From: Eledone cirrhosa
Lineage: Eukaryota
Direction: 5' to 3'
Length of the DNA: 64,000 bases
Assembly: GCA_964016885.1 (NCBI GenBank)
Contig: OZ024744.1
Coordinates: 88,474,001 to 88,538,000 of the forward strand
In this document: piece by piece, positions 4,507 to 46,901 of the stretch
Layout: the number at the start of each line of letters is the position of its first letter
Position numbering within the stretch: position 1 is the first letter of the stretch
Position numbers and translations under genes: made by a program
The notes under the pieces: generated by a model
Seen by the model: the letters and a program-made list of their open reading frames with translations, nothing else
Databases searched by the model: none
Told to the model about the DNA's origin: nothing

Positions 4507-4775
4507 TACTGCCAATACTGGAATTGAACCATCAAGACAGTTGAGGTATGTCATACATCAATTCATGCATTTTATCTGACGAGGACGTACTGAAAAAACA
4601 GCAGAGTACCTTCGAAATATATATAACAAAATATATATTTTGATTATGTGAATGTCTTCATTTATTAATATTTGAATAATATTAATAACTCCAGAAACTT
4701 TTACTGTAGAGTGCTTTTAATGTATTGTAAAACTATATTCAATGAGTAATCAATGAACCATATTAATCTTTGGTT
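4507..4775 (+). mobile_element. PLE 3' end with tail (same family as 31470-34932)
   Basis: Matches 34760-34930 then continues into about 95 nt of tail; (AT)n flanks. Confidence 0.75.
4569..4632 (+). ncRNA. Type I hammerhead ribozyme motif
   Basis: ttttat-CTGACGA-stem II (gtact/agtac)-GAAA-tatatata-acaaaa. Confidence 0.7.
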
Positions 4776-4792
4776 ATATATATATATATATA

Positions 4793-7018
4793 CTAGCAGA
4801 TTTACCCGGCGTTGCCCGGGGTTTGAAATTCTGCTAAGAATTTACAGCTAGGAAGTAAAAGAAGAAAATTATTTGTCCCTAACCTGTCAAAATAAGCAGA
4901 AGTCTTCAATAAATAATACAAACGAATATTTAGTGCAACCTTTGTACACATAAAACTATGCTGATAATGAAGGAAAACACTGAACAGGATGTAGTTATAC
5001 AAATGATTAAAGACAATACACGTTGCAAATCTGTAAAAAAAACAGGCAGTTTTGCTAAAGTGCAAAAAGTTGTAATGAAAGCGGAGTTGTATACAAACAA
5101 AAAAACAATGAGAGTAGAATAAGAGAAAATCTATTCTTTCAGAGCATCCTTTGCTGTGTATGGTTAAATTTTGAACTTATAATCCAAAATATCCCGCATG
5201 ACATATTCATTGGTATGTTTTGTAATGAGTAAGGTGAAGTCAAGGCAGAGCTGTAATAAGTGTTTTTGTTAACACTAAAGCACTTCAGGATAGACGATAT
5301 TCTTTGTTTTTCTTTTCGGAACAAACGCAAAGAGATTATCTCTACTGCCAACTCGTGAGCAAGCAATGTAGAATTGTTCGTGCGAAAAGCAAGGTTATTC
5401 CAAGTGAATTCCAGCGACAGACAGAGTTTGACCTTGCGGCTTGTTTATGGACATCGCAAAGGCAACACGAAGAGGAAATTGGGTTCAGCGAAAGGAGAAG
5501 GGAGTATCCACGCCTGATGTAGTCAGGCTAATTTTTGTTATTATCACATCCTCGCCTTTTCCACATCCGGATAGGGCAAATTAACCTTACCATTGGAGCA
5601 GCACATTCCAGCCGATTCTGCCGCCCACTTTTTAGCTTTACAATGTTGGCAAGTATTTGACATGGCATATATTTGAATATCAGGATGGATTTGATAGTTT
5701 ACATTAGGGTCATAATTAACTGCCTTAAGGTACCATCGTGAGCGTGATGCCTTTGAAATACCCCGCGATAAATCTCTACGTTGAGCGTTACCCTCCAGCC
5801 GAATAGCTCGACTTGTTACAGTCTCTACAGCTCGTGCTGTAGCAGTAGCTGAAGCATTACGCGCACGGCGTGTTTCATATTTTTGTACTGTCTCTGCAGA
5901 TCTTGCTACAGCAGTATCTGTAGCATCCATAGCAAGGCGTGTTTCACACTGATCTGTAGTCTCTGCAGCAGTTGCTTTAGCATTATTGGTTCGCCGCACT
6001 AACCGACGCTCAGCGGCGGATAAAGATGTTGCAATAACTGTACTCACCGCATTTTGTGATTGTCTATTTTCGGTTATTGGCGGAGCGTCATTTACCCGCA
6101 TTGTTTTCTTCGACCGAGAGGTCAAAGTCCGAGAGCCAATATGTGCATACTTTCTTTGGTGAAAAATTGTAAAGTCAAAATGTATGAATTGAAGCGTTAC
6201 AGTAAAATTAAAAATTTACTGGCAAAACTTAAACAATCCTTTGAATAACTACATCCTGTTCAGTATGTTCCTTCATTGTCAAAAAAGTTTGATGTGTACG
6301 AATATAGATGGAAGCATATATAATGCCTGCCTCAAATGTGGACGAAATTACTTTAAAAATGTAAAAGTTGTAGGTCCCAATGTTTTGAATGGAAAGTCCT
6401 AAAAGGATTGTTCTAAAAATAAACAAACCATCATTAAAATCTCGTCAATTCGAGACTGCTGCGAGATTAGGCCCTTACCGCAAAAATTAACACTTAATAT
6501 AGTGAAACAAGTTAAAACAACAAGTGTTTTTTTTTTAACTTTGAAAGTGCAGCAAATTCTTTTTTCGTATCAACATGGCTTATGAAAGTAGCGATACCGA
6601 ATTTTAAGGTTTTACACACGACGACATTCAGAATAAACAAGAAACAAACGATAATATTAGTGATTTATCTTCAAATGAATCTGTTGTTTATATTTCTGAA
6701 ATTTCGCACGGCGATGATTGTTGTTTTGAAAGTGAAAACGAAGGTCTCCATATCTCCCCTCTCTCACTCTCTTTATAAGGATTGTCAATAAAGTTGGTTA
6801 TCTCCCTTACATCAATTTTGCTACCGATAATTTTGCTATCGATTTTTTATTGCTCAACGGGGGTCGATTTGAAAAATGTTTGTGATGTGACCATCTTAGC
6901 GACCTGTTCAACGTGCACGGAAAATTTGGTCAAATTCGGTTGGTAATTGTAAAAGCCTTAGGTATCCAAAGTTGTACATAGACACACTCACATCCTCGCT
7001 TTTATATATGTAGATAGA
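4793..7018 (-). mobile_element. Non-autonomous (internally deleted) Helitron
   Basis: Minus strand starts A|TCTATCTACATATATAAAA (7018), ends cccgggcaacgccggg hairpin + CTAG|T (4793); carries a Rep/Hel N-terminal fragment. Confidence 0.85.
5544..6125 (-). pseudogene. Helitron Rep/helicase N-terminal fragment
   Basis: ET..Q.E.RL-type repeats then CQHCKAKKW..E..GMCCSNGKV.LP zinc motif; truncated directly afterwards. Confidence 0.8.
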
Positions 7019-7195
7019 TATATACAGCTATAACATGAGTGCAAGTATATCCATATATATACTAAGCTATATGCACACATTAATGCAATCGTATGTGAAA
7101 ATCCTCGGAATTGTCTTGTGTTGGTAATGACCTGATTCAATTCTGTGAAGAACTTAAATAGAAATCATACCTTTTTCAGCTTATGTATTAACTAG

Positions 7196-7340
7196 AGGCT
7201 GTGAGTTGGCAAAGTCATTAACATGTCGGATAGAATGCTTTGCAGTATCAGTTTCGGTTCTCTGCTCTCTGAGTTCAAATTCTGTCGAAGTCAACTTCAC
7301 CTTTCAATCCTTTCACGGGCGATACATAAAGTGCCAGTTC
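7196..7340 (+). mobile_element. Old tRNA-derived SINE (Nin/Deu-type central domain)
   Basis: B-box gagttcaaat followed by degenerate ctttcatcc..gataaa..taccag. Confidence 0.65.
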
Positions 7341-7359
7341 AATAATACTGAGATCTATT

Positions 7360-44523: not shown

Positions 44524-44774
44524 TATATATATATATATATATATATATATATATATATATATATATATATATATATACATACATACATAAAGTAGAAGGA
44601 GGCGCAAGACAAAGAGAATGGAAAGACGGACAGTCCAATCTTCTCAGTCAGCTTCTGTGAATCACTGCATTTGTTCGGATCTAGCTGTCGAAACGGCAGG
44701 AGCTCAGTCGTCCTGACTCTTTTCCTACACACACACACACACACAAACACACATATATATATATATACATATAT

Positions 44775-45355
44775 AACAAACAAACCGAACATTATAATAA
44801 ATGTTCGGTAAACCCATACGTACATATATATATATATATATGTGTGCATGTATATATATACATACTACTGTACGTCTGTACACATATATGTATGTACATA
44901 TACATACTTATATTTAGGTATCAGCCGTACTAAGAGTGAGAAATGAAATTTCGTTTCATTCTTTTCCATTTATCGTTTTCGGTACACCCGGCCGAGTAAC
45001 TCACTCGATATGCAAATTAGGCTGCTCAGCCGTTAATATGCATAAGGAGAGTATATACTTTCAGACGTTTAATCATCTGGCAGGAAGGTATACGGTGCTG
45101 ACGATAGCTAATAAGCTTGAAACTAGTACATCGTTCCTGTGTCAGTGTTGAACAAAAGGGCGACGATGGTTGCCGAGAACTGTACGGCGTAATTCGGGCT
45201 GTTTGTTTACAAACAAACCGAACATTATAATAAATGTTCGGTAAACCCATACGTACATATATATATATATATGTGTGTGCATGTATGTGTATATATACAT
45301 ACTACTGTACGTCTGTACACATATATGTATGTACGTATACATACTTGTATATATA
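44775..45355 (+). mobile_element. Partial tandem hammerhead-containing repeat (about 435-bp period)
   Basis: 44775-44910 repeated at 45209-45350; related to 56150-56688. Confidence 0.7.
45093..45133 (+). ncRNA. Minimal type I hammerhead ribozyme motif
   Basis: cggtg-CTGACGA-agct/agct-GAAA-ctagta-catcg. Confidence 0.85.
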
Positions 45356-45360
45356 TATAT

Positions 45361-46431
45361 ATAATTTTCATTTAAATATATACTATTTTGCTTCTTATAT
45401 TCGGCCTCAGAAATATTAATCTTCACTATATTTTCCCTCTTTTTAACTCATCGCACAATTTTTATATATTTTCTAATGGCGTTTTGTGTGTGTGTGTGTG
45501 TGTGTGTGTGTGTGTGTGTGTGTGTGTGTGTGTGTGTGTGTGTGTGTGTGTGTGTGTGTGTGTGTGTGTGTGTGTGTGTGTGTGTGTGTGTGTGTGTGTG
45601 TGTGTGTGTGTGTGTGTGTGTGTGTGTGTGTGTGTGTGTGTGTGTGTGTGCGTGCGTGTGTGTGTGTGTGTGTGCAGTTATGGAAGTACTTGATCATGCA
45701 ATATGGATGTTAAAATTGTACTTGTAAAAAAAGAAATTCTCGAGATTTTCAATAAACGAACGAATGGTATCAATTCATTCATTATAAATTGATTGAATTT
45801 GTTTGCGAAATTTCGTAATATTAAAAAGAGAATAAAACGAAAAAATAAATAAATAAATAAAATAAAAATAAAAAATAAAAATAAATAAAACATAAAAATA
45901 AAAATTAAAATTTCGCGATTCATCCAGCTTCTAATTACCTTCTATTCCACTTTACTTTAATAGAGCTATAAGTCTATTTAATGAAACTATAATTTAATTT
46001 AACGATTACGTTTACATACCCAGGCAAAAGAGTGCTATGTAAAGACTTTTTCGATTTCGCTTCTACTTCTTCTTCTTCTCCTTCTCCTCCTCCTCCTCCT
46101 TCTTCTTCTTCTTCTTCTTCTTCTTCTTCTTCTTCTTCTTCTTCTTCTTCTTCTTCTTCTTCTTCTCATCATGTAATTTAATTTCTTTTTTTACCTGTTA
46201 CGCTTTGAATTAAAATAATAATGCACTAAGTCAGCTATGTTACGTACAGCATGCACCAAAACCCCTGATCGAAAAACAAATTGAAAAGGACAAAAAAAAA
46301 AACGCTTAATAAATATATAGAAATTGTGCGATGAGTTAAAAAGAGGGAAAAATGACAAATATTATAGTAATGATTAATATTTGTGAGGCCGAATATTAGA
46401 GGCAAAATAGTATATATTTAAATGAAAATTA
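45361..46431. repeat. Inverted repeat pair (45361-45470 / 46310-46431) enclosing (GT)n 45485-45674 and (TTC)n
   Basis: Reverse-complement match by eye. Confidence 0.7.
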
Positions 46432-46544
46432 TATTTATATATATATATATATACATATATATATATACATATATGTATATACATACATACATATATATAT
46501 ATATATATATATATATATATATATATATATATATATATATATAT

Positions 46545-46901
46545 GTAGGAGGTGAGTTTTATTGTAGTACAATAAAGCAATGCAGATATCGGATAAGAAG
46601 CACTCTACAGTTTGTAGGACTGGAGAATACATAATATAAGATCAAAAGATGGTTAAAGGAGTTCCATGTATTTTATTATGCGCATTTCAAAAACAAACAT
46701 CATCATGCAATAATATTTGTGTTTTCATCAGATATGTTGATTTAAAACTGCACTATCCACAAGTGTTTTTTAGCCTTCATATCATGTTCTCCTGTTTTAT
46801 CTGATGAAAACACAAATATTATTGCATGATGATGTTTGTTTTTGAAATGCGCATAATAAAATACATGGAACTCCTTTAACCATCTTTTGATCTTATATTA
46901 T
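46545..46901. mobile_element. Miniature PLE derivative with two opposed hammerheads (46671-46734 minus, 46795-46861 plus) and left tail
   Basis: CTGATGA...GAAA-tgcgcata; arms 46631-46734 / 46798-46901. Confidence 0.85.

Follow-up and report, generated by a model that had tools for sequence, protein, structure and literature searches.

Full-length elements of the families analyzed here contain two copies of a small hairpin, RCTC-stem-(2-nt 3′ bulge)-GAGY-RCT, downstream of the hammerhead core and upstream of the ATG (HP1 and HP2), and the stretch from HP1 to HP2 is their tail. With a probability of about 70%, we propose from the sequence evidence that these hairpins hold the RT at two sites of internal initiation, both (TA)n target ends being primed on one RNA. 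The proposal rests on the hairpin pair, its covariation, the fixed offsets of both junction classes, the finding of one end per hairpin and the presence of arm-unique sequence, from which we infer five steps (transcript, binding, cutting, priming and joining).

The hairpin motif and the elements that carry it

All 11 sites cited in the original prediction within the window (the whole 64,000-nucleotide stretch of DNA analyzed) carried the described sequence. Nine of them fold singly into an RCTC/GAGY stem topped by an upper stem, with 1-2 nt bulged on the 3′ side, the folding being weak (−2.7 to −8.0 kcal/mol), and the copy at 46599-46626 showed the mismatch at its first pair that had been reported. 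The segments at 31168-31183 and 28392-28411 are two halves of a single larger hairpin, with a LINE in between that is flanked by a 9-nt target duplication (31160-31168 and 28425-28433). The GCT/ACT trailer, described as usual, was found for the motif generally but is missing from 16537-16570. The families, which had been called dissimilar, are less independent than stated, as C, D, G, and F group in a single clade. Further hairpin copies absent from the original prediction are marked in Table 1.

The motif measures 16-27 nt, and the spacer between its two arms ranges from a few nucleotides up to about 85 nt. A descriptor that made no demand for RCT, applied to 100 10-kb loci not used in the motif definition, gave 56 matches with a 2-nt bulge, 29 of which were followed by an RCT trailer (18 of these 29 belonging to one family), compared to 0-1 of 10-23 matches in five shuffled controls. 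This unrequested trailer indicates that the hairpin motif is not due to chance.

The assignment to mainly Naiad-type elements was not supported. Judged from sequence features, the hairpin belongs to Hydra-clade Penelope-like elements, since the linked ORFs encode a GIY-YIG after the RT, RW[KR], DKT, MGxxDxA/GLYRDD, and CxCx5C, and hammerhead cores lie upstream. A single ORF with C-terminal GIY-YIG was present as an intact 717-aa frame in locus L308, and the window ORFs were collinear with protein P0118. RWR/RWK and DKT (in place of DKG) were observed in families A, B, D, E, F, and G, the CxCx5C linker in 18413-19858 and L308, and CxxC and CxH in the window ENs and L308. Candidate hammerhead ribozymes with CTGANGA..GAAA cores were found in families C, D, E, F, G, and H, together with a CCGAAGA variant in family B and a variant core only in family A. 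(TA)n targets, pLTRs, an inverted copy and a one-sided tail were all present. The Hydra clade of Craig et al. (2021; PMC8557442) is alike in its C-terminal GIY-YIG, RWK/DKT/CxCx5C, hammerhead near the 3′ end, (TA)n targets, pLTRs, inverted copies and one-sided tail; published Hydra proteins were compared by eye, and our protein tree holds no named reference.

A Naiad origin was rejected because the EN is C-terminal, not N-terminal ahead of the RT, and a Naiad without canonical hammerhead does not fit the hammerhead cores present. A search with five short words of the published Naiad and Chlamys consensi, by word and not by structure, gave no match readable as the hairpin, and the motif was absent from 7/7 non-Hydra tails checked in the window. 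Assignment to Nematis was rejected, as was a selenoprotein, the TGA in nearly all matches being the natural stop. For the Hydra ORFs, Pfam returned only weak RVT_1 matches, and no relatives were found in the viral contigs searched or, by sequence, among solved structures.

The original prediction of a hairpin at the internal breakpoint is correct as far as it goes, but a second copy just past the tail end marks the other breakpoint. Because the tail runs from HP1 up to HP2, no window copy contains HP2, which explains why only one hairpin had been noticed. HP2 was located after the tail in 8/8 cited families, although the tail-to-HP2 distance is partly built in for six of them, because the search pattern required GCTC at 14-32 nt from the tail end; a shorter family F pattern gave 53 matches. 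Families C, J, and K, like the metagenome families, were identified through their protein or by random sampling. Since loose anchors mis-paired many sites, strict sequence-only anchors were adopted, with which two hairpins were detected in 21/42 metagenome 5′ regions and at least one in 33/42, no match being obtained in 9/42 5′ regions and 13/35 3′ regions. The hairpins are 68-163 nt apart, with HP1 72-112 nt from the hammerhead and HP2 38-148 nt from the ATG, both thus lying in the 5′ UTR. Both were kept in a 299-nt array (L307) and in family H, where no ORF was seen: no tblastn match was obtained in loci L304-L306, and in L303 only past a (TA)n tract. Family H may be non-autonomous.

Table 1. 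Hydra-clade features in the window (+, forward strand; −, reverse strand; "new", hairpin copy absent from the original prediction).
Feature	Position	Strand	Remarks
Family E mini inverted unit	270..391		Tailed arm −, HP1 310-329 (new), going just 4 nt beyond HP1; tail-less arm +
Family C hammerhead core region (CTGACGA...GAAA)	4576..4617	+	112 nt before HP1
Family C HP1 with GCT trailer	4688..4715	+	Tail end 4774, 8 nt before HP2 start in full-length copies (L267, L275, L278)
Family A inverted unit	10835..11031		Tailed arm −, HP1 10888-10914; tail-less arm +
Family A HP1	16276..16302	+	Tail end 16347, 6 nt before HP2 of full-length copies
Family B unit	16412..20702		Long tailed arm −; inverted tail-less arm + (19861-20702, 842 nt)
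Family B tailed arm parts		−	RT-EN remnant about 18140-19858; hammerhead variant from 16659
Family B HP1	16537-16570	−	Tail end 16412
Family F inverted unit	26330..26692		Tail-less arm −, hammerhead 26429-26393; tailed arm +, HP1 26595-26637
Family F HP1, degenerate (ACTG for ACTC)	27568..27610	+	New
Family E HP1	28144..28163	−	New; tailed copy, end 28104
Family H unit	28316..31455		Tailed arm −; tail-less arm +, ends 31455
Family H tailed arm		−	Hammerhead 31293-31252; HP1 31183-31168 + 28433-28392, LINE-split
Family C Hydra RT-EN ORF, 5′-truncated, frameshifted	31470..33626	+	Tail-less end of this copy 34931, 8 nt before HP1 position
Family E unit	39193..41513		Hydra RT-EN on − (39193-40974); inverted arm on +
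Family E inverted arm		+	Hammerhead core 41382-41404; HP1 41454-41473 (1-nt bulge); tail end 41513
Family D inverted unit	41526..41950		Tail-less arm −, hammerhead 41622-41586; tailed arm +
Family D tailed arm in 41526..41950		+	Hammerhead 41767-41803; HP1 41871-41893
Family A inverted unit	42353..42537		Tailed arm −, HP1 42398-42424; tail-less arm +
Family D unit	44368..44523		Tailed arm is distal tail only, never reaching HP1; segment recurs at 47142-47302
Family G inverted unit	46545..46898		Tailed arm −, hammerhead 46731-46685, HP1 46599-46626; tail-less arm +
Family J HP1 (63771-63816) and tail	63771..63851	+	New (ninth family); tail end 9 nt before HP2 of full-length copy in L047

Insertion junctions and the proposed mechanism

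In 1 Mb of unselected genome, 111/114 (TA)n junctions mapped 0-12 nt 5′ of HP1 (54) or HP2 (57), compared to 9% expected. TAT/ATA sites elsewhere in the references (206) took 2 junctions, whereas the 39 near hairpins took 95. Among the unselected ends, 44 were not (TA)n-joined by the rule used, just 11 of them inside the 0-12 nt windows, and 37 unaligned ends were dropped overall. The offset was constant over the whole range of HP1-HP2 spacings and hammerhead-HP1 distances. Tail-less ends had been placed just 5′ of the hairpin, and in window families A, C, D, E, F, and G they were found 6-9 nt before it (leftmost reading); two end calls at −15 and −17 were made against reference copies with indels, and the family B end was read by eye only. 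Regarding inverted insertions, one end per hairpin (HP1+HP2) was observed in 42/43 classified cases at unselected loci, and in 10/10 and 33/33 classified cases in the window and in selected loci, respectively.

In the mechanism that we favor, the hairpins would serve in the RNA as docking sites, positioning the RT at two internal starts. Read-through transcription of a tandem (pLTR) copy would leave both hairpins 3′ of the template, and the ORF protein, probably as two copies, would bind HP1 and HP2 on a single RNA. The GIY-YIG would cut both (TA)n strands, and each DNA 3′ end would base-pair with 0-5 nt of the U/A-rich strand immediately 5′ of a hairpin and prime cDNA, a start at HP1 giving the tail-less arm and a start at HP2 the tailed arm. 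Finally, the two cDNAs would be joined head to head, often inside the hammerhead stem.

Alternatively, the RNA could be cut just 5′ of the hairpins, either by an RNase P-like nuclease or by the protein that the element itself encodes, and the RT would prime from the RNA 3′ end thus formed. The ends do lie just 5′ of a short stem followed by a single-stranded 3′ trailer, which is the geometry of tRNA-like 3′-end processing. We nevertheless consider processing unlikely, given that junctions are scattered over 0-12 nt and track TA microhomology, and that an RNA cut at HP1 cannot yield the tailed arm, so the strict HP1+HP2 pairing would need two differently cut RNAs per event. Moreover, the PAc protein (PMC11167929) starts internally on unprocessed RNA in vitro. 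A mixed form, with a cut at HP2 and an internal start at HP1, may apply.

Covariation and arm structure

Covariation of the motif was observed across 41 families, which come from this genome and from metagenome contigs. Upper-stem pairs scored 0.98/0.77/0.66 compared to 0.82/0.45/0.40 when shuffled, the signal being strongest at the 2-nt offset. The first upper pair switched about eight times between C-G and U-A on the protein tree, whereas the third did not exceed a slid control (14 vs. 12) in a crude tree count. Three of the lower pairs are invariant and hence represent sequence conservation, not covariation; RNAalifold on a MAFFT alignment retained just the 4 lower pairs, this alignment, which also underlies the lower-pair result, consisting of 35 hand-picked hairpins already seen and thus not being an unbiased test. 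A possible pairing between the RCT trailer of one hairpin and the second hairpin was dropped, as no covariation was visible by eye. Together, junction mapping and pairing data support the original prediction of a covarying cis-acting hairpin a few bases 3′ of the internal breakpoint.

On the sense strand, G-U pairs outnumbered A-C (11 vs. 2; 32 and 26 in shuffled controls), which disfavors the antisense cDNA strand. This result and the upper-stem covariation weigh against a DNA-level motif, in which the EN would recognize the hairpin, or its AGYRCT half, in cDNA or extruded duplex, cut 5′ of it and resolve the intermediate; the variable arm spacer is also unlike a duplex site. AGYRCT is a degenerate palindrome, and the EN of D. 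virilis required the tail sequence to cleave plasmids, as cited in PMC11167929. Craig et al. (PMC8557442) also attribute the tail to EN-mediated resolution, giving it 30-40 bp, whereas the HP1-HP2 spacing that sets the tail here is 68-163 nt. We regard recognition at the DNA level as quite improbable.

Self-priming has been proposed for head-to-head PLE repeats (PMC3846280), and single priming at HP2 followed by fold-back self-priming could produce the inverted arm if copy-back stopped at HP1. Equal arms were present in 17/36 resolved inverted units, which fit fold-back equally well, and some of them could be made in this way. However, the tail-less arm extends further upstream in 16/36 units, which fold-back already leaves unexplained, and in 6 of those 16 the tailed arm never gets to HP1, which means that the two arms cannot have been copied from each other. 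Fold-back as the general route is therefore very unlikely.

Protein-binding operators are typically bulged stems of fixed sequence, and both hairpins lie in the 5′ UTR, HP2 being 38-148 nt before the ATG. A role in translational control or RNP assembly, as operators or packaging sites, with another factor setting the ends, is nonetheless hardly credible as it leaves the fixed junction offsets over 68-163 nt spacings unexplained, although the hairpins may play such a part as an added role.

Relation to known systems

In L1 twin priming, both target DNA ends prime on one RNA to give an inverted insertion and the second primer lands at variable internal sites, whereas here a repeated motif appears to fix both starts, and overlapping arms are frequent. 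The UnaL2/ZfL2 stem-loop occurs as one copy at the RNA 3′ end, inside the copied region, with priming 3′ of the stem; here, in contrast, there are two internal copies, priming would take place on their 5′ side, and the cDNA lacks the anchoring hairpin. HBV epsilon templates protein priming from its bulge. The UnaL2/ZfL2 3′ stem-loop of stringent LINEs and SINEs (PMC1636434, PMC4176376) is alike in having a small, conserved stem interrupted by an internal loop, in being required for mobilization and in being common to non-autonomous partners. HBV epsilon, the telomerase TBE and DRT10 SL5 (10.1101/2025.10.16.682844) share with our hairpin a template-adjacent stem that sets the working site of an RT, the RTs being related or analogous, but TBE and SL5 lie 5′ of the template and halt synthesis, while the present hairpin lies 3′ of it and would mark the start.

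PLE start-site choice, the inverted arm and the one-sided tail have raised questions ever since the class was described. In the sole in vitro study (Frangieh et al., 2024; PMC11167929), purified PAc, a Poseidon protein from Anolis, cuts and extends both strands, two internal RNA start sites flank the tail downstream of the hammerhead, RNA 3′ of the start sites is needed, and a dimer is predicted. These two tail-bounding starts and the processing of both strands are a precedent from another clade; unlike here, they lie within the ORF, in an 'AC-rich stem loop', and the portion available names no conserved or repeated RNA signal. Supplementary figures S1B and S2C of that work could show a comparable stem. 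A doubled 16-27-nt motif that predicts both insertion ends makes the start-site question directly experimental, provides a criterion by which the boundaries of Hydra elements and their non-autonomous partners can be called, and opens an RNA-based approach to the RT family most closely related to telomerase.

More tentatively, at somewhat less than even odds, the two-copy RNA signal might program obligatory twin priming, with one RT-EN protomer per hairpin, a single transcript and a double-strand cut; in this reading the signal would be conserved across cnidarian, echinoderm and crustacean Hydra elements and those of this genome. If true, twin priming would account at once for the Penelope tail and the inverted arm, and a portable cassette of <200 nt could load any upstream RNA onto a telomerase-related RT.

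The motif had not been recognized as a described one, and in the window search no Rfam match above threshold was found at the cited sites. That search gave 242 matches at E ≤ 5, the 150 listed being all below gathering and mostly simple repeats, and those overlapping cited sites were sub-threshold repeat or fold-back matches; 12 Hydra loci gave one chance match. No description of the motif was found in the text of openly readable papers, and the words 'hairpin' and 'stem-loop' are absent from the main text of PMC8557442. The motif is, however, readable by eye in the Hydra consensi published there, which include coral and sea-cucumber elements: at the 3′ ends of Hydra-2_Amil and Hydra-2_Ajap, as two copies at the 5′ end of Hydra-1_Ajap, and as imperfect copies in Hydra-1_Crog.

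The hairpin pair and its carriers

The hairpin (RCTC, a variable stem-loop, a 2-nt 3′ bulge and GAGY, then an RCT trailer) was found at every window site for which it had been predicted, and in four additional copies. A hammerhead core lay 72-112 nt upstream of each on the same strand, and the hairpin strand was the coding strand wherever an ORF was attached. The genome was sampled at 100 loci of 10 kb each, of which 80 came from across four large contigs and 20 lay beside the window. Here the RCT trailer, which was not demanded by the descriptor, followed 29 of 56 matches with a 2-nt bulge, 18 of the 29 belonging to a single family, compared with 0-1 of 10-23 in five shuffles. 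At least five further families of this genome carried the motif (L048, L049/L091, L069, L083/L128 and L119).

Attached ORFs encoded a reverse transcriptase (RT) followed by a GIY-YIG endonuclease (EN), with MGxxDxA and GLYRDD; in the available part of the supplement of Craig et al. 2021 (PMC8557442), all six places showing GLYRDD are Hydra proteins. The Hydra hallmarks listed in the available part of that paper were present in the intact 717-aa ORF of family A (repeat families of this genome are lettered), and likewise in the N-termini of families B, D, E, F and G. The carriers, predicted to be mainly Naiad-type Penelope-like elements (PLEs), are thus not Naiads, given this domain order and these hallmarks. 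Family A, found in tandem at locus L308, is likely young; an ORF was not seen in three of four family H loci searched. Since seven non-Hydra tails checked in the window lacked the motif, the "diverse PLE families" of the original prediction are diverse Hydra families.

A scan of metagenome and MAG contigs with a Hydra protein alignment yielded 94 loci in 67 families, probably host DNA; in L208-L224, retrotransposons of the Hydra clade sat on contigs deposited as a symbiont genome or as bacterial MAGs, where contamination with host DNA is the likely source. A structure descriptor gave 56 sense-strand matches in the metagenome and MAG loci (0-8 in 20 shuffles), 48 of which flanked the ORF match. 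Upstream of the ATG the motif was often double, with copies near −100 to −135 (HP1) and −40 to −67 (HP2), the tail being the stretch between. Under strict sequence anchors, two hairpins were present in 21 of the 42 5′ regions, a single one in 12 and none in nine. The 3′ copies listed included some ending 2-4 nt before HP1 (L139, L145, L151, L156, L214) and others 0-5 nt before HP2 (L149, L169, L192, L199, L211).

These pairs predicted GCTC after the tails of the window families in full-length copies, which was tested by pattern searches of the genome. Matches numbered 297 (A), 234 (G), 12 (D), 53 (F), 230 (B) and 78 (H), with one fixed continuation in most of those listed and none for the reversed patterns of the same families. 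The loci recovered held a complete hairpin and then a Hydra start, the latter lacking only in H. Full-length copies of family C came through protein search rather than the tail pattern; for family E a junction copy was present in one of 11 loci inspected, more were obtained by protein search, and its HP2 contains roughly 85 nt of inserted sequence, its first pair being imperfect.

By eye, among published consensi in the available part of Craig et al. 2021 (PMC8557442), Hydra-2_Amil (coral) and Hydra-2_Ajap (sea cucumber) terminate in the motif, Hydra-1_Ajap starts with two copies, Hydra-1_Crog (crustacean) contains imperfect copies, and the ends of Hydra-1_Amil and Hydra-1_Obim have none. No Rfam family fitted in the window or in 12 Hydra loci, and our literature searches found no description of the hairpin or the pair. 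We regard the paired hairpin as a real, apparently undescribed cis element of a known clade, akin to RT-anchoring stem-loops.

Pairing within the stem

Covariation was analyzed in 65 hairpins from 41 families, one per family and class, chosen by position and end sequences only. At the 2-nt bulge, upper pairs 1-3 were paired in proportions of 0.98, 0.77 and 0.66, against 0.82, 0.45 and 0.40 after shuffling within class (p 0.0002 each); at four other bulge offsets p was below 0.05 in only 1 of 16 cells, all these shuffles ignoring relatedness. A tree of 37 proteins showed both sides of the first upper pair changing together in about 8 of 8-9 cases; the second pair had 12 co-changes versus 7 in a slid control, and the third 14 versus 12. 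The predicted covariation is supported. RNAalifold on a MAFFT alignment retained the lower stem alone, which counts against covariation, as does the weakness of the hairpins. The lower stem was near-invariant (G-C or A-U, then CUC/GAG), as we infer would be expected for a surface read by protein, and the bulge was U, then U, C or A, in 64 of the 65.

Insertion ends and inverted units

Alignment of ten natural reference copies to DNA of this genome yielded 274 ends at (TA)n and 105 others, along with 59 read-throughs; another 37 were discarded as unaligned, and five lay at locus edges. Within 1 Mb of loci not chosen for the motif (unselected), 111 of 114 (TA)n ends lay within 12 nt 5′ of HP1 (54) or HP2 (57), where 9% were expected, which bears out the predicted breakpoint just 5′ of the hairpin; the window gave 20 of 22, and both junction classes occurred in all ten families. 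Junctions shared 0-5 nt of microhomology with the target (mode 3), and TA-like sites alone do not suffice to explain the ends, because 206 such sites elsewhere took two junctions and 39 near hairpins took 95. The motif is paired, with ends at fixed offsets and, in inverted insertions, one end per hairpin. The unselected set also contained 44 ends not joined to (TA)n, of which only 11 fell inside these zones; many of the remaining ones were alignments breaking 14-22 nt early, which probably reflect diverged subfamilies.

Both end classes were about equally used (84 and 76, unselected). Inverted units combine a tail-less arm, ending before HP1, with a tailed arm, ending before HP2: among classified cases this held in 42 of 43 unselected units, in all 10 window units and in all 33 at selected loci, eight more with an unclassified end being outside these counts. 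A few arm pairs, with up to 4 kb between them, may represent independent insertions.

Proposed protein docking and its alternatives

According to the available text on PAc, a Poseidon-clade PLE protein from Anolis, the purified enzyme cleaves and extends both strands, initiates at two internal positions that delimit the tail, depends on RNA 3′ of these positions and is a predicted dimer (PMC11167929). For the Hydra elements we favor, at a probability of roughly 0.7, a reading in which Hydra protein would dock on each of the two hairpins of one read-through RNA, and each end of a cut (TA)n target would prime just 5′ of a docked hairpin. A retrozyme-like mini array of family A (L307) terminates just before HP2, and this array and family H are compatible with a signal acting without its own ORF.

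G-U appositions outnumbered A-C (11 and 2; 32 and 26 when shuffled), and the pairing signal therefore points to the sense strand. The hairpins might, at RNA level, be processing signals, which we consider unlikely. Slightly less probable is that the motif is a DNA-level EN site.

Formation of the inverted arm by fold-back (available part of PMC3846280) would suit the 17 units with equal arms among the 36 of 51 measured units that were resolved, but the tail-less arm was longer in 16 and the tailed arm in three, and the tailed arm stopped short of HP1 in six. The arms of units with a longer tail-less arm, or a tailed arm without HP1, are not mutual copies but independent, and both were therefore, we infer, primed on RNA; fold-back is very improbable. 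A role of the hairpins as operator only, set against ends falling beside each of them, is equally remote.

Family A loci and further elements of the window
Position	Feature	Details
G000:C1:437199001-437209000	L308, family A tandem	near-identical 3531-nt copies with intact 717-aa ORFs
G000:C2:356029201-356032600	L307, family A	eight head-to-tail 299-nt units in (TA)n; hammerhead 3′ half, HP1, HP2, ATG
12908-16203	PLE of another clade, by motifs presumably Neptune-like	hammerhead cores at 13455 and 15858; inverted arm; one-sided tail; short GTGT..ACAC stem a few bases past the tail-less end
59630-62699	Poseidon-like element	624-aa frame, RVT_1 and GIY-YIG; 761-nt inverted arm; 47-nt one-sided tail; no RCTC/GAGY hairpin
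44776-45485, 56092-56689	another hammerhead-bearing repeat family	strong hairpins before (TA)n ends
38928-39168, 41938-42151	3′ ends with hammerhead, joined to (CA)n	one interrupts a family E element at 39166
28425-31168	LINE in the loop of a family H HP1	9-nt target duplication; RT frames 29074-30234 and 30487-30993, minus strand
35823-36182, 37227-37629	two blocks of 108-bp tandem arrays	
44181-44589, 46954-47364	two copies of one segment	
7681-7800 and about 12 other places	abundant SINE-like repeat, 120-190 nt	tandem pieces clustered at 22079-23236
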